Assembly (NCBI GenBank): GCA_964371555.1
Contig: CAYJMQ010000002.1
Span: 5,521-69,520, forward strand
DNA length: 64,000 bases
Reading direction: 5' to 3'
Source: an uncultured bacterium
GTDB lineage: Bacteria; Bdellovibrionota; JACOXK01; 2-02-FULL-40-11
Both the position numbers and the translations under genes were made by a program. Below, one piece after another: positions 57,474 through 64,000 of the stretch. Positions within the stretch are counted from its first letter, which is position 1; every line of letters begins with the position of its first letter. The notes below the pieces were generated by a model, which searched no databases, was not told the DNA's origin, and saw only the letters and a list, made by a program, of their open reading frames with translations.

Positions 57474-57586
57474 CAGCGCCCTCGCTGTGCAAAACCAAGA
57501 TAGATCACGCGTGGACATCATAGACTAAATTCCTCGGAGAGAGATGATTTGAATTGATTTAAAATGAAGAGTTGCAATTCTTTAAT

Positions 57587-57608
57587 CTAATGGTATTATT
57601 ACCATTAG
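57587..57608. promoter_or_regulatory. perfect inverted repeat ctaatggta-ttat-taccattag abutting the start codon of the 57609 ORF
   Basis: Seen directly in the sequence. Confidence 0.35.
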
Positions 57609-57914
57609 ATGCCTTCCGAACTTGTTTTTCATGAGAAGATCATATTGAAACATCGAGATCCAGAAAGACAAGGCATCTTTGAATTTGTTGTTTGGGAGGT
57701 AGAGAAATCGAAGGGTTACCCTGAAGGTTTGAAATATCGTGCTTGGCTTTCAGAAAGAGACGAGACCATCTTTGGTTTTGATAACCACAAACCCAAAGGC
57801 CCTCATCTACACATTGGGGAACAAGAGGTCGGATATGTATTCCGAGGACTTAAAGCTTTGAAAGAAGACATAATCGCTATGATTAAAAAGGAGGGATTTA
57901 TTTATGAAGACTAA
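57609..57914 (+). CDS. small conserved protein, putative toxin component of a two-gene cassette (resembles TumE/DUF6516-type proteins; assignment tentative)
   Basis: 101 aa; overlaps the downstream wHTH gene by 11 nt; preceded by a palindromic operator. Confidence 0.4.
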   Translation: MPSELVFHEKIILKHRDPERQGIFEFVVWEVEKSKGYPEGLKYRAWLSERDETIFGFDNHKPKGPHLHIGEQEVGYVFRGLKALKEDIIAMIKKEGFIYED

Positions 57915-58263
57915 AAGAGCATTTTTAATGGTGGAACCCACAAAGAAAGCATTTGATCGTGCATTTCGAGTTCTTTCACGCCCATCTAAGAAATACGCGG
58001 GAACAACGATTTTGAGCTTTCCCGATTATGAAACATTGGGGAAGGCTATTTCAGCAACACGAATAGAACTCCTAAATGTCATTCGTACTCAACGCCCAAG
58101 ATCGATTCAGCATTTAGCAAAACTTGTGAAAAGAGATTTCAAGAATGTTTATACAGATGTCAAATTTTTACAAGAATTTGGGCTTATTGATTTAGAAGAG
58201 CGCGGCGCCAGGCGTTCTTCTGTTCCTAAAACAAAATTTGAAGAATTTGTGCTGGCTGCATAA
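57904..58263 (+). CDS. winged-helix DNA-binding protein (HVO_A0114-like putative antitoxin/regulator)
   Basis: 119 aa; LSFPDYETLGKAISATRIELLNVIRTQRPRSIQHLAKLVKRDFKNVYTDVKFLQEFGLI HTH pattern. Confidence 0.45.
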   Translation: MKTKRAFLMVEPTKKAFDRAFRVLSRPSKKYAGTTILSFPDYETLGKAISATRIELLNVIRTQRPRSIQHLAKLVKRDFKNVYTDVKFLQEFGLIDLEERGARRSSVPKTKFEEFVLAA

Positions 58264-58439
58264 TCATTCTTGACAATATCTCCCCAGAGTCCTGTTCCAC
58301 CAGCTGCTCAAGAAGATAATTTCGAAATAACCGACATTCCTCCAGGGTCCCACATACGGGATCAGCTAAAGCATTGCCAGTGGAAAACAATCCAACAGAT
58401 GTGCTGAACGTTTAGGCAGTCTTCTCACTCACTCTATTT

Positions 58440-59825
58440 CTAAACACGATGGCGGATTTCAATAATGCATTTCTTTTCGGATAATTGATCGATGAGGTGG
58501 GAGAGTTCCTGTTGATTCGAATGATCGAGGTTGGAGTCCCATTCGTCCAATAACAAAATGTCTGTATTGACCTTTTCGCTCAGTTCCTTAAGCCGTGCTC
58601 TCAAGAGCTCCCCCGTGGATAAACCCTGAGCGCTTTCAAATTCGAGATGATGCTGGGCCGGTAAATAATAAGCTTTTTCTCCCCACTGATCTTTGAGCAG
58701 CATAAGGAGGGTCGATTTCCCGGAGCCGTTTTCTCCGCGGAGGGTGATTCTACCAGCCTTTGGAAGAGTGCGATGCATGTCATCGATGGATTTCAGTTCA
58801 GTAACCTTATCTTGAACGTGGAGTCTTAATTTGTTCCACTGAATGCGGGAAGCGAGATCAAAGATGGGTGTTGAGAAGATTGAGTTATGAAGACCTCGAA
58901 GTCGATTTTTGTGGGTGGTCCATTGTGAGAGAAGCCAGAGAATTTCGTGAGTAAACCCTAAGATCATAAACAGTCGCGGTAAAGTGACTACAAATGTTGA
59001 AAGCATCACCTTGTTATCCATATTTTGTACGAGTGAAGTGATAAGAATCACGATGGTCGGAAGCAGTGTCAACAGAGCAATGGCAATGGAGACACTTTGT
59101 CGAAATGTTTCTGAACGAATATTGTCTTTTTCGGCCCTGGAAAAATTTCTGAAGGTTTTATTCCACCAGAGCTTGAGGTTATAGATATTGCCAATGAGGA
59201 CATTGTCCCAGGCAGAGAGAAGGGATTGCCCAAGTTTGACTCGTGATTCCTGGGCCCGTGTCGCCAGCGCCCCCTGTTTTTTGCTTTGAAGCTTAAGAAG
59301 CAAAGCGACAAGAATGAGGCTTAGTCCATATCCTAGAACATACTTCGGTTCAACAACAAAAGAGAGCACCGTAATATTGAAGAGGACATTTAAGGCGCAT
59401 GAAGAGAGATCATAAAGATACCCTATAGAATCTGATAGTGTACTTTGCCCTTCAGAGGTGAGATAAGCAATTTTCTCTTCTCTCTCTTGCCGCTGACTCC
59501 ATGCTGATATCTGTTTTTGATTGAACTTGGTAAATTTTTCGATGAGATGGCCAAGACTTCTCTGTTTCCATTTTGCGGCAAAGATAAGAGCGATTCCCCC
59601 TGGTACATAGGGGAGAGTGAGCGATAGAAGATAAAGGCCAAGATTATTCCAAATCGGGTAATTCGCATGAATATCTTGTACGAGCCTTGCCAACCACACG
59701 GTGGAAGAAGCCACAATGATTTGTTGAATCAGAAGGCACAGAAAACAATAGAGCCCTTCTCGGCCCATTAAAATTTTATATATTCGAAACTGCATGGACC
59801 TTCTCATTTTTAAAATTTTGATCAA
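58440..59825 (-). CDS. ABC transporter, fused permease/ATP-binding protein (exporter type)
   Basis: Six TM N-terminal domain; Walker A GENGSGKST, signature LSTGE, Walker B ILLLDEWD. Confidence 0.75.
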   Translation of the reverse strand: MIKILKMRRSMQFRIYKILMGREGLYCFLCLLIQQIIVASSTVWLARLVQDIHANYPIWNNLGLYLLSLTLPYVPGGIALIFAAKWKQRSLGHLIEKFTKFNQKQISAWSQRQEREEKIAYLTSEGQSTLSDSIGYLYDLSSCALNVLFNITVLSFVVEPKYVLGYGLSLILVALLLKLQSKKQGALATRAQESRVKLGQSLLSAWDNVLIGNIYNLKLWWNKTFRNFSRAEKDNIRSETFRQSVSIAIALLTLLPTIVILITSLVQNMDNKVMLSTFVVTLPRLFMILGFTHEILWLLSQWTTHKNRLRGLHNSIFSTPIFDLASRIQWNKLRLHVQDKVTELKSIDDMHRTLPKAGRITLRGENGSGKSTLLMLLKDQWGEKAYYLPAQHHLEFESAQGLSTGELLRARLKELSEKVNTDILLLDEWDSNLDHSNQQELSHLIDQLSEKKCIIEIRHRV

Positions 59826-60013
59826 TTTCTTCTATTTTCTCGCTGCATGATTCTATGAGCATGAGGGCGCGAGGTGTTAAAAGTTTCTCAAAGCGAGACA
59901 TATCGCAAATGGAATTCACGGAGTTCCGGGTTTTTTCTATAACAGACTCCGATGGAGGATGAAGTTTGGGATTTTGGGGATGACCTAAAAATCGATCTCG
60001 CAGGAGTAAAATT

Positions 60014-60130
60014 TCAGTGGCGACAACGAGACTGTGGAGAACCTTTGGCCGTTTCGATCGCTTGTTGAATGTCGTTGTCTTGAACATTTTCAGAAATTTG
60101 CGCGATCAGTGAGTTGCAGTTGTTCTTCAT
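60014..60130 (-). CDS. small ORF (38 aa, MKNNCNSLIAQISENVQDNDIQQAIETAKGSPQSVCRH) with a strong Shine-Dalgarno, between a GT2 gene and the ABC exporter
   Basis: AGAAAGGAAcaatcATG; below the 60-aa cutoff of the ORF track; speculative. Confidence 0.2.
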   Translation of the reverse strand: MKNNCNSLIAQISENVQDNDIQQAIETAKGSPQSRCRH

Positions 60131-60201
60131 GATTGTTCCTTTCTAACCTGGCAATGTTGGTCCAGGGACTATTCTTTTATGGGGGGAAATTGAGGGCACT
60201 T

Positions 60202-61185
60202 CTATCTTTTTTGGAGGGGGCTGTCAAGTCGCGATTTTACACTTAATGATTTAGACAAAGCGAATATTTCGCGATCGCTGACGAGGGATAATTCATTTCT
60301 CATTCGAATGCGTCTTATCATTGCCTCCGGAAAGCGCATGAGGGCGTCCTTAAATCCCAAGATGAAATCCCATTCCCCGAAAGCGATATATTTTAGAAGG
60401 TGTAATGGCATGAAAAATATATGTTGAATCAGGAGCCATGGATCCCGAATGTTTTTCCATACAAAAAGGTATAAATTTCTCCGATTCATTCTTCTTAGAC
60501 CTGAGATTCCAAATTCCTTTTTAAAACTCATCTGTCCATAGTGATATACAATGCTTTCAGGGCAATAAAATGCCCGCCATCCTTTACGATAAGCCCTGAA
60601 ACAAAGATCTGTGTCTTCCACGGTGCCCGGCAGATAGAGTGTGTCGAAACCGCCAAGGCTGACAAACATATCCCTTCTAAATGCCCCGTAACCGGCCTGC
60701 ATCGTCAACTTTTTCGCGGCAATCTTTTTTTCATGTCCGATGAACCGGCTTGTCCCCCAGATAAGGCCATTTTTCATTTCCATTTTTGAAAGGGAGCCAT
60801 GATAGGCGCCGTCATCCATGTTTCTTGATTGAGAGGCGGCCAGAAAACAGTTTTTGTCTTCCATGAGAACATCCATAAGAGGATCGATAAATTTCGGATC
60901 GACTTTGATGTCGTTATTGAGGAGAATCGCGAAGGGCTCATTGATTTTTTTTAAGTAATCATTAAATGAACAATAGACGAGATTTTGAGGGCACTTCACA
61001 AAGTCGACCAGAGAGGCGTAATTTTCTTCTATAAATTTCTGGCTGTTATCACGGCTCTGATTATCTAAAATCGTAATTGATGAGAAGTATCTGCTGTGAT
61101 GAGCCGCATCAATGATTGACGGCAGACACTCTTTGAGGAGCGTTTCGCCATTATAATTCAGAATGATAATTCGGCAGACCGGCAT
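60202..61185 (-). CDS. GT2 family glycosyltransferase
   Basis: RIIILNYNGETLL...ILDNQSRDNS...LNNDIKV and VEDTDLCFRA (DxD-like) motifs. Confidence 0.75.
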   Translation of the reverse strand: MPVCRIIILNYNGETLLKECLPSIIDAAHHSRYFSSITILDNQSRDNSQKFIEENYASLVDFVKCPQNLVYCSFNDYLKKINEPFAILLNNDIKVDPKFIDPLMDVLMEDKNCFLAASQSRNMDDGAYHGSLSKMEMKNGLIWGTSRFIGHEKKIAAKKLTMQAGYGAFRRDMFVSLGGFDTLYLPGTVEDTDLCFRAYRKGWRAFYCPESIVYHYGQMSFKKEFGISGLRRMNRRNLYLFVWKNIRDPWLLIQHIFFMPLHLLKYIAFGEWDFILGFKDALMRFPEAMIRRIRMRNELSLVSDREIFALSKSLSVKSRLDSPLQKR

Positions 61186-61314
61186 GAATCCTTATATCCT
61201 CAAGATCTTTTGACCGTCAATGGAGTTCCATTAAAAGCATGAGTGTAAGGCCTTACACATTGTTGATAAAAATTGTTTGACGAGGGATGAGTTCCGTGGC
61301 ATGGGCTTTGCGAT

Positions 61315-62367
61315 ATGCCGCACAAAAATAAAGACCGGGCGGAACGAATTGAGATCCTGGGGGCCGTTCATAATTTCAGCAATTTTATTGGCGCCATCCT
61401 TTCCCGGACAGAGCTTCTGCTGAGTAAAATTCAGGATTCTGATCTTGTTCGTGACATTGAAGTGATTCGATCGGCTGCCAAAGAGGCAGTGACTATTGCC
61501 AATCGCTTACAGTCTCCGAAGTCGGTTCGATCCGTTAAAAAGGATTGGGTCAATCTCAATGAATTGATTACGACGGTCATTGAGATGGTGAAACCAAAAT
61601 GCCTTGATTCATCCGGCAGGCCAAAAATTCTTATTCGTTTTGAAACCACCTCCATTCCAAAAATTTATGGCTGGTCTTCGCTCTTGCTTGAGGCGCTCTT
61701 GAATCTCCTTCTCAACGCGATTGAAGCGGTTCCTCAGGAGATGGGGGGAGAAATTGTGATTCAATCCTTTGTAGATGGCAATTGGCTTAAAATTCGCATT
61801 TCGGATTCCGGTATCGGAATGTCGGAGAAGACCCTTCGGCATCTTTTTAAACCTTTTTTTACCACTAAAAAAGAAAGTGGGCATGGGCTGGGACTGGCCA
61901 GTTCACAAAATTTTGTAAAGAAACATGGGGGTTCTATTGAGATAGAAAGCGCCGCCGAAATGGGGACAAGAGCGCTCATCTGCCTCCCCCTCCCCCGTAC
62001 TTTCCAACGGAAAAAAAGATCGGTGAAAGGAAGAAAAATCATGCTCATTGATGATGAAAAAGACTATCGGGAAGCGACGGCCGAATTACTTTCGCTGCAG
62101 GGGTATAAAGTGGAACAGGCGGCGAATGGCTTTGAGGCGCTTAAAAAATTAAAACGAAATAATTTTGACATCATTTTGTCAGATCTTAAGATGCCGAAGC
62201 CTTCTGGAAATGATCTTTTAAAAAAGATCAAAGCGAGAAATAAGAATACAAAAGTCATATTTGTTTCTGGCTATTCAAATAAAAATGCGATTAAGGCGGA
62301 TGGTTGGCTTGTAAAGCCATGTCTGTTTGAGGATATTTCCGAGGCCATTCGAAAAACATGTCATTAA
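61315..62367 (+). CDS. hybrid sensor histidine kinase/response regulator (HisKA-HATPase_c-REC), no sensor domain
   Basis: H-box LGAVHNFSNFIG, N-box LLNLLLNAIEA, G-boxes DSGIGM and GHGLGLA; REC domain IMLIDDE...ILSDLKMP. Confidence 0.7.
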   Translation: MPHKNKDRAERIEILGAVHNFSNFIGAILSRTELLLSKIQDSDLVRDIEVIRSAAKEAVTIANRLQSPKSVRSVKKDWVNLNELITTVIEMVKPKCLDSSGRPKILIRFETTSIPKIYGWSSLLLEALLNLLLNAIEAVPQEMGGEIVIQSFVDGNWLKIRISDSGIGMSEKTLRHLFKPFFTTKKESGHGLGLASSQNFVKKHGGSIEIESAAEMGTRALICLPLPRTFQRKKRSVKGRKIMLIDDEKDYREATAELLSLQGYKVEQAANGFEALKKLKRNNFDIILSDLKMPKPSGNDLLKKIKARNKNTKVIFVSGYSNKNAIKADGWLVKPCLFEDISEAIRKTCH

Positions 62368-63005
62368 GAGTGATTCGTCCGGAAAATGATGAAAGGTTGG
62401 GTTGGCTTGCCGCGACCTTTGAATCGGTTTCTGATCTTGTTTTTATTTCGGATCTTGAAGACCGGTTTATTTATGCCAATCCGGCCGCCTTAAGGAAACT
62501 TGGCTATACTCGCGAGGAGATCATTGGAAAAACAGCAAGTCTTATTATGTCTCCAAATAATCCAAAGGGACTTCGTGAAGAGATTATCAAAGCCACACTT
62601 CAAAATCCGAGCGGATGGGAGGGAGAGGTTTTAAACGTCAGAAAAGATGGAACCGAGTATTGCGCGCATCTGAAAACCGCGCTGGTGCGCAATAAACGGC
62701 AGGAACCGATAGGGATGACCGGAATTTCCCGTGACATTACTGAACTGGTTGCCAAAGAGAAGATGGCCGCAATTGGAATGCTTTCTTCAGCGCTTGCCCA
62801 TGAAATAGGAAATCCCCTGGCTTCTATTTCTTCTCTTGTTCAGCTTCTTGAAAGAAGAATTGAGGACGAAAAGACACTCAAGAATCTAAAACTGATGCGA
62901 ATTCATATTCAAAGAATCAGTCAACTCATTCACAGCGTAGAAGAGTCAAGCCTTTTGGGTGTCATGGAGGGGCAGGAGAAATATGAAAAACGAAAAAAGA
63001 GCTAG
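62358..63005 (+). CDS. PAS domain-HisKA (DHp) protein lacking a catalytic ATPase domain
   Basis: PAS (FISDLEDRFIYANPAALRKLGYTREEIIGK), H-box ALAHEIGNPLASI; ORF ends about 70 aa after the H-box with no N/G boxes. Confidence 0.6.
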   Translation: MSLRVIRPENDERLGWLAATFESVSDLVFISDLEDRFIYANPAALRKLGYTREEIIGKTASLIMSPNNPKGLREEIIKATLQNPSGWEGEVLNVRKDGTEYCAHLKTALVRNKRQEPIGMTGISRDITELVAKEKMAAIGMLSSALAHEIGNPLASISSLVQLLERRIEDEKTLKNLKLMRIHIQRISQLIHSVEESSLLGVMEGQEKYEKRKKS

Positions 63006-64000
63006 TATACTCATCGTAGATGATGAGCGGACACTTTGCGAAACCTTATCTGAAGTATTAAAAGAAGAGGGATATGAAACAGATCTTGCGTTTGATGGCG
63101 ATGAAGCCATTTCAAAAATAGAAACAAATAAATTTGATCTGATTTTTTGTGATCTTCGGATGCCGCGCGTAGATGGTCTCAAGGTTCTCAAAAAAGTGGA
63201 GGGAATTACTCCCGAAACTTATTTCATTGTGATGACAGCGTATAATTCGATGGAAACGACAATCGAAGCGTTGAAATTGGGCGCATATGACTATGTCGTT
63301 AAGCCGCTTATTTTTGATGATGTTCTTTTAAAACTGAAACGGCTGCTTGCCTTTAAAAATCTGAGCGTTGAAGATCAGGTGACAAAGGGGATGATTACCG
63401 AACAATTTGCTCTGGATAATCTTTTGGGTCAGGGGCGTGAAATGAAGGCGATCTATTCGTTGATACAAAAAGTTGCTCCGACATCAGAGACGATTTTGAT
63501 CACCGGGGAAATTGGGGTTGGGAAAGGAAGGCTTGCGAAGGCGATTCATTACGCATCCCATCAGAAAGAAAACCCTTTTTGGGACATTCGTTGCAGCAGC
63601 GTTCGGGAAAAACAGATTGAGGCATCGCTTTTTGGTGAGGAAGGGATCTTTAAAAAAAACAAGAGGGGCACTCTCTATTTGTCTGAGATTTCGGAATTGA
63701 CGCCCCGTCTTCAGACAAAATTGTTGGAAGTCCTTTCAGGAAAAGAGGAGAGTGGAACAAGACTCATTGTTTCTGCCACAAAAGATTTATCTGAAGATCT
63801 CCTCTATCGGGTTAATGTGATTGAGATTAAGGTGCCGCCCCTTCGGGCAAGACGGGGGGATATTCCTTTTCTTATTAAATATTTTGTTCAGATGTTTGCT
63901 GGGGGGCTTGGAAAAAAGGCCCGGTTTGTTGAAGAGGGTATGGTTGAAGCGCTGATGAATTATCCATGGCGGGGGAATGTGCGGGAACTTCAGAATGTTT
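62983..64000 (+). CDS. NtrC-family response regulator (REC + AAA+ sigma-54-interaction-like domain, degenerate), 3'-truncated by window edge
   Basis: REC ILIVDDE...DLIFCDLRMP; AAA+ region GEIGVGKG (Walker A), TLYLSEI (Walker B with D to S), no GAFTGA motif; ORF runs off the window. Confidence 0.65.
   Translation, partial: MKNEKRASILIVDDERTLCETLSEVLKEEGYETDLAFDGDEAISKIETNKFDLIFCDLRMPRVDGLKVLKKVEGITPETYFIVMTAYNSMETTIEALKLGAYDYVVKPLIFDDVLLKLKRLLAFKNLSVEDQVTKGMITEQFALDNLLGQGREMKAIYSLIQKVAPTSETILITGEIGVGKGRLAKAIHYASHQKENPFWDIRCSSVREKQIEASLFGEEGIFKKNKRGTLYLSEISELTPRLQTKLLEVLSGKEESGTRLIVSATKDLSEDLLYRVNVIEIKVPPLRARRGDIPFLIKYFVQMFAGGLGKKARFVEEGMVEALMNYPWRGNVRELQNV

Follow-up and report, generated by a model that had tools for sequence, protein, structure and literature searches.

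What can a two-component system still do once one of its kinases has lost the ATPase domain and its regulator has lost the parts that contact sigma-54 and DNA? This question is raised by three overlapping genes, here called g1, g2 and g3, in a 64,000-nt stretch of DNA from an uncultured bacterium of the Bdellovibrionota (assembly GCA_964371555.1, contig CAYJMQ010000002.1, positions 5,521 to 69,520 of the forward strand), the whole of which is referred to as the window. Positions 61315–64000 are taken up by the three open reading frames (ORFs), all on one strand, with a promoter-like motif at their head:

61315..62367, + strand: g1, sensor-less hybrid histidine kinase, 350 aa
62358..63005, + strand: g2, PAS plus DHp (dimerization and histidine phosphotransfer) protein, 215 aa, without a catalytic ATPase domain
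62983..64000 (window end), + strand: g3, receiver (REC) plus degenerate AAA+ domain, 339 of 386 aa inside the window, stop codon 144 nt past the window end
61297..61311, + strand: sigma-54-type -24/-12 motif TGGCATGGGCTTTGC (TGGCAT-N5-TTGC), at the head of the cassette

The best explanation of this arrangement is that g1, g2 and g3 form a single co-transcribed, translationally coupled two-component cassette that was reduced stepwise in the window's lineage. As to its working, the reading we prefer, tentatively and at a probability of about 0.45, is that g1 would be the sole kinase using ATP, and that g2 would serve as a PAS-gated phosphotransferase, acting through His148 between the receiver of g1 and g3. 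The ORFs overlap by 10 nt (g1/g2) and 23 nt (g2/g3), the start of g3 lying inside the end of g2. The overlap between the g1 stop and the g2 start (...ACATGTCATTAA; window 62358–62367) is exactly the same in every lineage of the clade to which the window belongs, a small set of uncultured metagenome-assembled genomes labelled 'Deltaproteobacteria', from groundwater and sediment, that was recovered by homologue searches and contig look-ups. It locks the C-terminus of g1 (TCH) and the N-terminus of g2 (MSL) together, which argues for co-translation.

The protein at the centre of the question is g2, in which the following were located:

62412–62747, + strand: PAS domain
62796–62819, + strand: H-box AHEIGNPL
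62799–62801, + strand: His148

Pfam detected PAS (aa 19–130) and HisKA (aa 142–195) in g2 and nothing more; the HATPase_c domain that follows the DHp in a canonical sensor kinase was not found by this search. A catalytic and ATP-binding (CA) domain would not fit in, since the frame of g3 opens at 62983, before g2 has ended, and a tblastn search of the window and of the reduced relatives with the CA domain of a full-length orthologue matched solely the CA domain of g1. With that match, the g3 overlap and the one open frame downstream, rescue of a g2 HATPase domain by frameshift correction or realignment was rejected. The AlphaFold2 (AF2) model of g2 (pLDDT 76) likewise consists of the PAS domain and two long helices (aa 128–167 and 171–214), with nothing else. 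His148, Glu149, Asn152 and Pro153 are invariant; in HisKA kinases, an acidic residue beside the histidine serves phosphorylation and an Asn or Thr at His+4 serves phosphatase activity (PMC3510030). The form is a recurring one, as a cluster at 90% identity holds seven members of 206–228 aa from NCBI, Logan, JGI and ENA. The solved PAS domains closest to that of g2 are the FAD-binding ones of MmoS (3ewk, E 2e-18) and NifL (2gj3, 9qq6), and the g2 PAS has no LOV cysteine motif; a flavin or redox input is therefore possible, as a lead and not a finding. At the junction of PAS and DHp (62745–62760), the window and its closest relatives (the window group) as well as locus L008 are without a coiled-coil linker of about 28 residues that is kept in L009, L010, L011, L013, L173 and L174, and the linker is short in L002 and L005 too, indicating that its length is variable in the g2 family.

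The regulator g3 has the following landmarks:

63151–63153, + strand: Asp57
63505–63528, + strand: Walker A
63631–63651, + strand: site of the L1/GAFTGA deletion
63670–63690, + strand: Walker B, LYLSE
63733–63771, + strand: site of the L2 deletion
within 63772–63819, + strand: 9-aa deletion taking out the FRxDL arginine
63973–63996, + strand: sensor II, GNVRELQN

Pfam assigned to g3 a REC domain (PF00072, E 3.6e-29), a partial Sigma54_activat domain (profile positions 2–121 of 168) and AAA_lid_14. The receiver residues Asp57, Thr85 and Lys107 are conserved and Walker A (GEIGVGKG) is present, while Walker B (TLYLSEI) has Ser in place of Asp; this LYLSE form is found in the window group and L008, and relatives have DE or DQ. 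The GAFTGA loop (L1) is replaced by a clean gap of 12 residues, both in an alignment with 28 relatives and in a PDB alignment to NtrC1, so a hidden GAFTGA was rejected, and a second gap falls at the pre-sensor-I loop (L2). The end of the gene was read from the Logan contig L001, which is 100% identical to window positions 61000–64000 over 3001 nt and extends 190 nt further: g3 is complete at 386 aa, ending ...LERAILLCDPAVSFLKIQDLPSDFLTPARSIKNSDINRTQAAVAPFG, and the same 386-aa protein is encoded on a 71-kb NCBI contig. No Fis-type helix-turn-helix (HTH_8) was found in the 386-aa g3 or in L008, L012 and L172, nor did tblastn with the HTH of a full-length orthologue detect a remnant in the window or the reduced relatives, whereas HTH_8 is kept in the g3 orthologues of L009, L010, L013, L002, L005, L173 and L174. 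The AF2 model of g3 (pLDDT 80.8) shows the receiver, a compact and intact five-stranded AAA+ core, the lid and a disordered tail. In a PDB alignment g3 resembles Aquifex NtrC1 and NtrC4 and Brucella NtrX (PDB 5m7n). By its residues, then, g3 does not qualify as a sigma-54 enhancer-binding protein (EBP), as it lacks GAFTGA, the Asp-Glu pair of Walker B and the HTH, while keeping the Walker A lysine and the receiver Asp. Its full-length orthologues, judged likewise, fit the class of regulators without GAFTGA that bear an HTH and act with sigma-70, into which the g3 of the window, having no HTH, does not fit. We know of no characterized member that combines absence of the sigma-54 contact, a Walker B Ser, loss of the arginine and absence of the HTH. 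The tails of the HTH-less forms differ among relatives about 90% identical (...DFSIG, ...SVRSIN and ...AAVAPFG; L012:5626–6741, L172:4872–5969 and P0025, the last a 326-aa variant that diverges after the Walker B region), so the tail looks dispensable.

The first protein of the cassette, g1, was mapped as follows:

61369–61371, + strand: DHp His19
61699–61728, + strand: N box
61801–61821, + strand: G1 box
61846–61869, + strand: F box
61879–61899, + strand: G2 box
62182–62184, + strand: receiver Asp290
62260–62274, + strand: FVSGY
62314–62316, + strand: Lys334

HATPase_c (PF02518, aa 123–227, E 6.5e-23) and Response_reg (PF00072, aa 242–345, E 2.9e-22) were detected by Pfam, and the N, G1, F and G2 boxes are intact. 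The H-box, AVHNFSNF, whose His19, Phe21 and Asn23 do not vary among the clade's orthologues, aligns with the AHDFNNLL of more distant hybrid kinases that do carry a Pfam HisKA domain. The receiver is likewise intact and conserved (DD246–247, Asp290, Ser318 and Lys334); it has FVSGY and a short beta4-beta5 linker, and shares 33% identity (E 1e-22) with the receiver of g3. An FxSGY with a short beta4-beta5 linker has been described for CckA-type intermediary receivers (PMC9981736). As an in-frame TGA at 61288 prevents extension of the ORF upstream, g1 is without an N-terminal sensor domain. With its H-box His, its HATPase_c domain and boxes and its C-terminal receiver, g1 has the sequence features of a hybrid histidine kinase, and autophosphorylation is predicted.

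The domain readings of the original prediction, which was made from the nucleotide sequence alone, stand up to these analyses. It described g1 as HisKA, HATPase and REC without a sensor, which Pfam and the upstream TGA bear out (HisKA being supported by the H-box alignment and not by Pfam), and g2 as a PAS protein with the H-box AHEIGNPL that ends before any N, G1 and G2 boxes, in agreement with Pfam, AF2 and tblastn. It further read g3 as REC plus AAA+ with GEIGVGKG, TLYLSEI and no GAFTGA, hence probably not a canonical sigma-54 activator, as the alignments confirm, and advised a look for an HTH beyond the window end; the 386-aa product on the identical contig and the three related assemblies agree in having none.

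Comparison of the loci indicates how this state was reached. In the clade the cassette always lies at the same site, gatB-asmA-mtnA-[g1-g2-g3]-pepA. In L002–L005, L013, L173 and L174, g2 is a complete kinase of 352–387 aa with N, G1, F and G2 boxes, and g3 has 430–441 aa with HTH_8. Two outgroup loci, L016 and L094, share the upstream synteny (pepA downstream is shown in L016) and contain g2 and g3 but no g1. All 21 g3 proteins of the clade are without both the GAFTGA L1 and the pre-sensor-I L2 loops; in relatives at 39–43% identity L1 reads GAFTGA, GSFTGA or GAFTDA and the L2 insertion is present, and the g3 of L016 is intermediate, with GAFTGA gone and L2 kept. A comparison of this kind shows the ancestral locus as a PAS-HisKA-HATPase kinase (g2) and an NtrC-family regulator (g3) between mtnA and pepA. 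Since two outgroup lineages have g2 and g3 only, g1 was probably gained later than this pair. We infer the following order of events: 1) a pair of histidine kinase and response regulator; 2) loss of GAFTGA; 3) gain of g1, with both contact loops deleted; 4) loss of the CA domain of g2; and 5) in g3, loss of the HTH and of the FRxDL arginine, together with replacement of the Walker B Asp by Ser. The g3 changes of the fifth step are restricted to the window group and L008. The lineage is rare: a metagenome scan yielded just three more loci belonging to the clade or close to it (L092, L093 and the outgroup L094).

The ATPase domain of g2 was lost or broken more than once. It is absent, with differing end points, from the window group and L008 (215–223 aa), from L009 (233 aa) and from L011 (261 aa). 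In addition, the g2 of L010 carries a 53-nt out-of-frame deletion across the G1 box when compared with its sister L013 (L010:6320–7418 vs L013:2089–3252), and that of L092 has a 14-nt out-of-frame deletion in the N box when compared with L173, to which it is otherwise identical over 1183 nt (L092:262–1430 vs L173:4813–5995); the latter difference looks like a strain-level variant. In a neighbour-joining tree the window group and L008 were grouped at 100%, and these with L011 at 80%, with L009 left unplaced. On the strength of this tree and the differing breakpoints, a single origin of the loss was rejected, and the independent losses or disruptions of the CA domain number between three and five. 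At every locus with a missing or broken CA domain where the upstream gene is readable, g1 is present and intact, and the PAS-DHp part of g2, all of g1 and the REC-AAA+ part of g3 are never disrupted across the loci.

The retained parts have also been maintained. For the window against L008, both of which are CA-less and HTH-less and have synonymous sites near saturation (pS 0.53–0.72), the ratio of nonsynonymous to synonymous substitution rates (dN/dS) was as follows:

g2 PAS: 0.07
g2 DHp: 0.07
g3 REC: 0.07
g3 AAA+ core: 0.12
g3 lid: 0.13
g1 CA: 0.18
g1 REC: 0.11

Closer pairs gave whole-gene values of 0.12–0.35, and g1 gave 0.15–0.31 against its relatives. These substitution patterns show every remaining domain to be under purifying selection and, as such low values were obtained near synonymous saturation, indicate that the reduced proteins were kept long after the deletions.

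From these observations a three-step relay can be proposed. As the only ATP-using autokinase, g1 would phosphorylate its own His19 and hand the phosphoryl group to its own receiver at Asp290; from there it would pass, under control of the PAS domain, to His148 of g2, whose dimer would form a PAS-gated DHp four-helix bundle. Exchange between His148 of g2 and Asp57 of g3 would follow, with g2 serving as a reversible phosphotransferase and possibly, through Asn152, as a phosphatase. Phosphorylated g3 would neither contact sigma-54 nor bind DNA and probably would not hydrolyse ATP. This relay, whose order (HK to REC to DHp to RR) had been put forward in the original prediction, fits the data in that i) g1 has the only ATPase domain left in the cassette and loss of the CA domain is seen only beside g1, ii) His148, Glu149 and Asn152 of g2, Asp57 of g3 and Asp290 of g1 are conserved under purifying selection, iii) the receiver of g1 bears the CckA-type FxSGY, and iv) the receivers of g1 and g3, being 33% identical, could plausibly both dock on the NtrB/AtoS-type DHp of g2. 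Donation from a receiver to a kinase-dead protein resembling a histidine kinase has experimental precedents in PhyT (PMC5898713) and in RedD/RedE (PMC2755868).

Several points weigh against this relay. Its direction and partners are drawn from sequence comparison, and the g2 of the ancestor carried an ATPase domain itself, so that finding g1 beside it is no proof of g1 ever having fed g2. The DHp of g1 got no HisKA score in the Pfam search, and when used alone in a PDB search it found no match; RedE, a similar sensor-less transmitter, did not autophosphorylate in vitro (PMC2755868). The exact FxSGY is confined to the window group, the relatives having ISG followed by F, K, V, M or D, and the g1 receiver is overall closest to those of Thermotoga TrrA and NtrC1, not to that of CckA. 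The operon is headed by a sigma-54-type promoter, yet the regulator that it encodes cannot activate sigma-54. The model is weakest at the output: with neither sigma-54 contact nor DNA binding, phosphorylated g3 must be supposed to act through oligomerization or protein-protein contacts.

Of the explanations that dispense with the relay, the one deserving most attention makes g2 a PAS-gated dedicated phosphatase or a stoichiometric sequesterer of g3, with His19 of g1 phosphorylating g3 directly and the g1 receiver serving as a phosphate sink or autoregulator. The isolated DHp domain of EnvZ keeps phosphatase activity, and loss of a CA domain abolishes kinase activity but need not abolish phosphatase activity. 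The His+4 residue required for phosphatase activity in HisKA proteins, here Asn152, is invariant (PMC3510030), and PhyT, too, holds its regulator in a complex (PMC5898713). However, Glu149, which is specific for kinase activity or phosphoryl acceptance, is also kept, the usual target of a hybrid kinase is its tethered receiver, and the DHp of g1 (HNFSNF type) is of a subfamily other than the HEIGNPL type of NtrB/AtoS that is normally paired with NtrC-type receivers, so that we regard this explanation as possible but unlikely. A split kinase, in which the ATPase of g1 phosphorylates His148 of g2 directly in a g1-g2 hetero-complex and g2 is an ordinary phosphodonor for g3, would make sense of the formal complementarity between a sensor-less g1 and an ATPase-less g2, as well as of the conserved 10-nt overlap, which implies co-translation and matched stoichiometry. 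The CA domain of EnvZ can phosphorylate a separate DHp domain in vitro. Yet a mere ATPase donor would not need the His19 and receiver that g1 keeps under selection, and the cassette with two complete kinases predates the loss of the CA domain; we consider such a split improbable. Improbable as well is the notion that the reduced module is a DNA-independent regulator of sigma-54 transcription. It would draw on a g3 whose AAA+ fold is selected although its HTH, its GAFTGA loop and its Walker B aspartate are gone; phosphorylated g3 would co-assemble with a canonical EBP and poison or tune its hexamer, and feedback would then act at the conserved sigma-54-type promoter in front of the cassette's own operon.

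Two further explanations would deprive the cassette of any function of this kind. That it is a decaying remnant, g2 and g3 being non-functional pseudogenes heading for loss, might be suggested by the progressive removal of the CA domain and then of the HTH, the Walker B aspartate and an arginine, by the fresh out-of-frame deletions in L010 and L092, and by the variation of the g3 C-terminal tail among close relatives. The dN/dS values of 0.07–0.13 for retained domains of g2 and g3 near synonymous saturation largely refute decay, which was rejected; at least five independent assemblies have undisrupted frames, and the catalytic His and Asp residues are invariant, making this account very improbable. 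That the missing domains are assembly or frameshift artefacts of the window has nothing but the general error rate of metagenome assemblies in its favour. Against it, the reduced architecture is repeated on independent contigs (L007, L008, L012 and L172) and in NCBI, Logan, JGI and ENA assemblies from different samples, g3 begins within the end of g2, and no remnant of the CA domain or HTH is present in any frame; the chance of an artefact is practically negligible.

The cassette is a variation on known phosphorelays, among which degenerate-kinase phosphotransferases and relatives of the EBPs without GAFTGA have counterparts here, and not a new kind of system. Among the closest known systems is the Sphingomonas melonis relay Pak -> SdrG -> PhyT -> PhyR. 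Its member PhyT (formerly PhyP) resembles g2 in that it is derived from a histidine kinase, keeps the sensor and the phospho-His DHp, and does not autophosphorylate (PMC5898713). PhyT passes phosphate from a receiver of the FATGUY type to the terminal regulator and also restrains that regulator by complex formation (PMC5898713). Unlike g2, which is soluble, has a HisKA (HExxN) DHp and has had its ATPase domain deleted entirely, PhyT is membrane-bound, has a HisKA_2/HRxxN DHp and keeps a degenerate ATPase domain; in addition, the upstream receiver is a separate protein in the PhyT relay, whereas here it is fused to the kinase.

The original prediction had likened g2 to ChpT of Caulobacter and Spo0B of Bacillus, DHp four-helix bundles derived from histidine kinases that connect an intermediary receiver (CckA Rec and Spo0F, respectively) with the terminal regulator (PMC3433190; PMC9981736). 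The hairpin with a phospho-His is present in g2, and a dimer is predicted. Membership of that family does not hold, however, since ChpT and Spo0B have a C-terminal CA-like alpha/beta domain and no sensor, whereas g2 has no such pseudo-CA domain and retains an N-terminal PAS. In the RedCDEF 'four-component' system of Myxococcus xanthus, the RedD receiver donates to RedE, a non-autophosphorylating protein resembling a histidine kinase, and thence to the output regulator (PMC2755868). RedE resembles the DHp-CA part of g1 in being a sensor-less transmitter with the His near the N-terminus, and differs from g2 in keeping HATPase_c and lacking PAS; the Red regulators are single or dual receivers and not AAA+ proteins. 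Like g1, CckA-type hybrid kinases have an HDFNN-type H-box, a CA domain and, at the C-terminus, a receiver in which FxSGY is combined with a short beta4-beta5 linker, but g1 has no transmembrane or PAS input. As a candidate CckA orthologue g1 was rejected, the NCBIfam CckA models giving 109–116 bits (E 1e-31 to 1e-33) against a cut-off of 1000.

For g3, the nearest parallels are NtrX, the NtrC proteins of Rhodobacter capsulatus and Caulobacter, and VpsR of Vibrio, which are REC-AAA+ proteins with the L1 GAFTGA deleted and are independent of sigma-54 (bioRxiv 10.1101/2023.06.06.543975; PMC6158489). The HTH is retained in all of these regulators, which act on the DNA of sigma-70 promoters; the g3 of the window differs in having no HTH, in having also lost L2 and in the change of the Walker B Asp to Ser. 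Lack of an HTH is a feature that g3 shares with FlgR of Helicobacter and CtcC of Chlamydia, NtrC-family REC-AAA+ proteins that act from solution. The latter two keep GAFTGA and the ATPase and activate sigma-54, unlike g3, in which GAFTGA is lost and ATPase activity probably is as well. An NtrC-family protein that has remained under selection after losing the sigma-54 contact, DNA binding and probably ATP hydrolysis would point to an undescribed output mode of REC-AAA+ proteins.

Histidine phosphotransferases such as Spo0B, ChpT and PhyT are believed to derive from kinases whose catalytic function was lost. To our knowledge, only the end states of this transition from kinase to histidine phosphotransferase have been available. 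Here, one syntenic locus holds the full kinase, freshly broken forms (with 14-nt and 53-nt deletions) and long-maintained truncated PAS-DHp forms, each adjoining a second kinase that could supply phosphate, which makes the transition directly testable by comparison of orthologues. If the module has indeed become a DNA-independent regulator of sigma-54 transcription, the improbable reading given above, g2 would be a repeated natural snapshot of a sensor kinase becoming a signal-gated histidine phosphotransferase.

The motif at the head of the cassette was scored with the sigma-54-type consensus TGGCAY-N5-TTGC(W). There are 2 matches in the window, against 0.21 expected by chance, and 16 in total in the 221 kb of these loci, both strands counted. 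Of the 12 clade loci, 11 have the motif in front of the cassette (among them L009:2058, L010:5170, L013:936, L174:3713, L002:4902, L005:4900 and L173:3720), and so do both outgroups, where it lies upstream of g2 (L016:2742 and L094:2356). In seven lineages the -12 element ends 30–42 nt before the start codon (the motif itself starts 45–57 nt upstream of it), and a Shine-Dalgarno sequence lies in this interval. In the window group the motif ends just 3 nt before the annotated ATG of g1, and in the outgroups 13–14 nt before the ATG of g2, with a Shine-Dalgarno-like AGAGG in the gap; the start-site geometry is unexplained in both. If the motif is a real promoter, the operon would depend on a different EBP that still carries GAFTGA. 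Additional motifs were found at L010:12926(-), L174:9883(-), L013:7180(-) and L005:12140(-). In L010 and L174, some 40 nt separate the motif from a downstream, unannotated gene of about 290 aa, without a Pfam domain, beyond pepA; in L013 it directly adjoins the start called for a similar gene. These motifs near the cassette may mark another sigma-54 target.

A functional link between the cassette and the neighbouring pair of glycosyltransferase (GT2) and ABC exporter genes, also put forward in the original prediction, was not supported, as the gap between mtnA and g1 holds different inserts or none in the relatives. The gap, at 57474–61314 of the window, is a hot spot for insertions. The window has there a TumE-like/HVO_A0114-like pair (57609–58263), an ABC exporter-like gene and a GT2 gene; L002 has PMT_2, a GT87 gene and two GT2 genes, L009 an MqsA-like pair, and L172 genes differing from those of the window, and the gap is empty in L005, L010, L011, L013, L173 and L174. 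The ABC exporter-like protein of the window (58440–59825, - strand, 461 aa) has an unusually short nucleotide-binding part, in which Pfam ABC_tran matches only aa 348–378, the stretch between the two Walker motifs is compressed, and LSTGE stands in place of LSGGQ.

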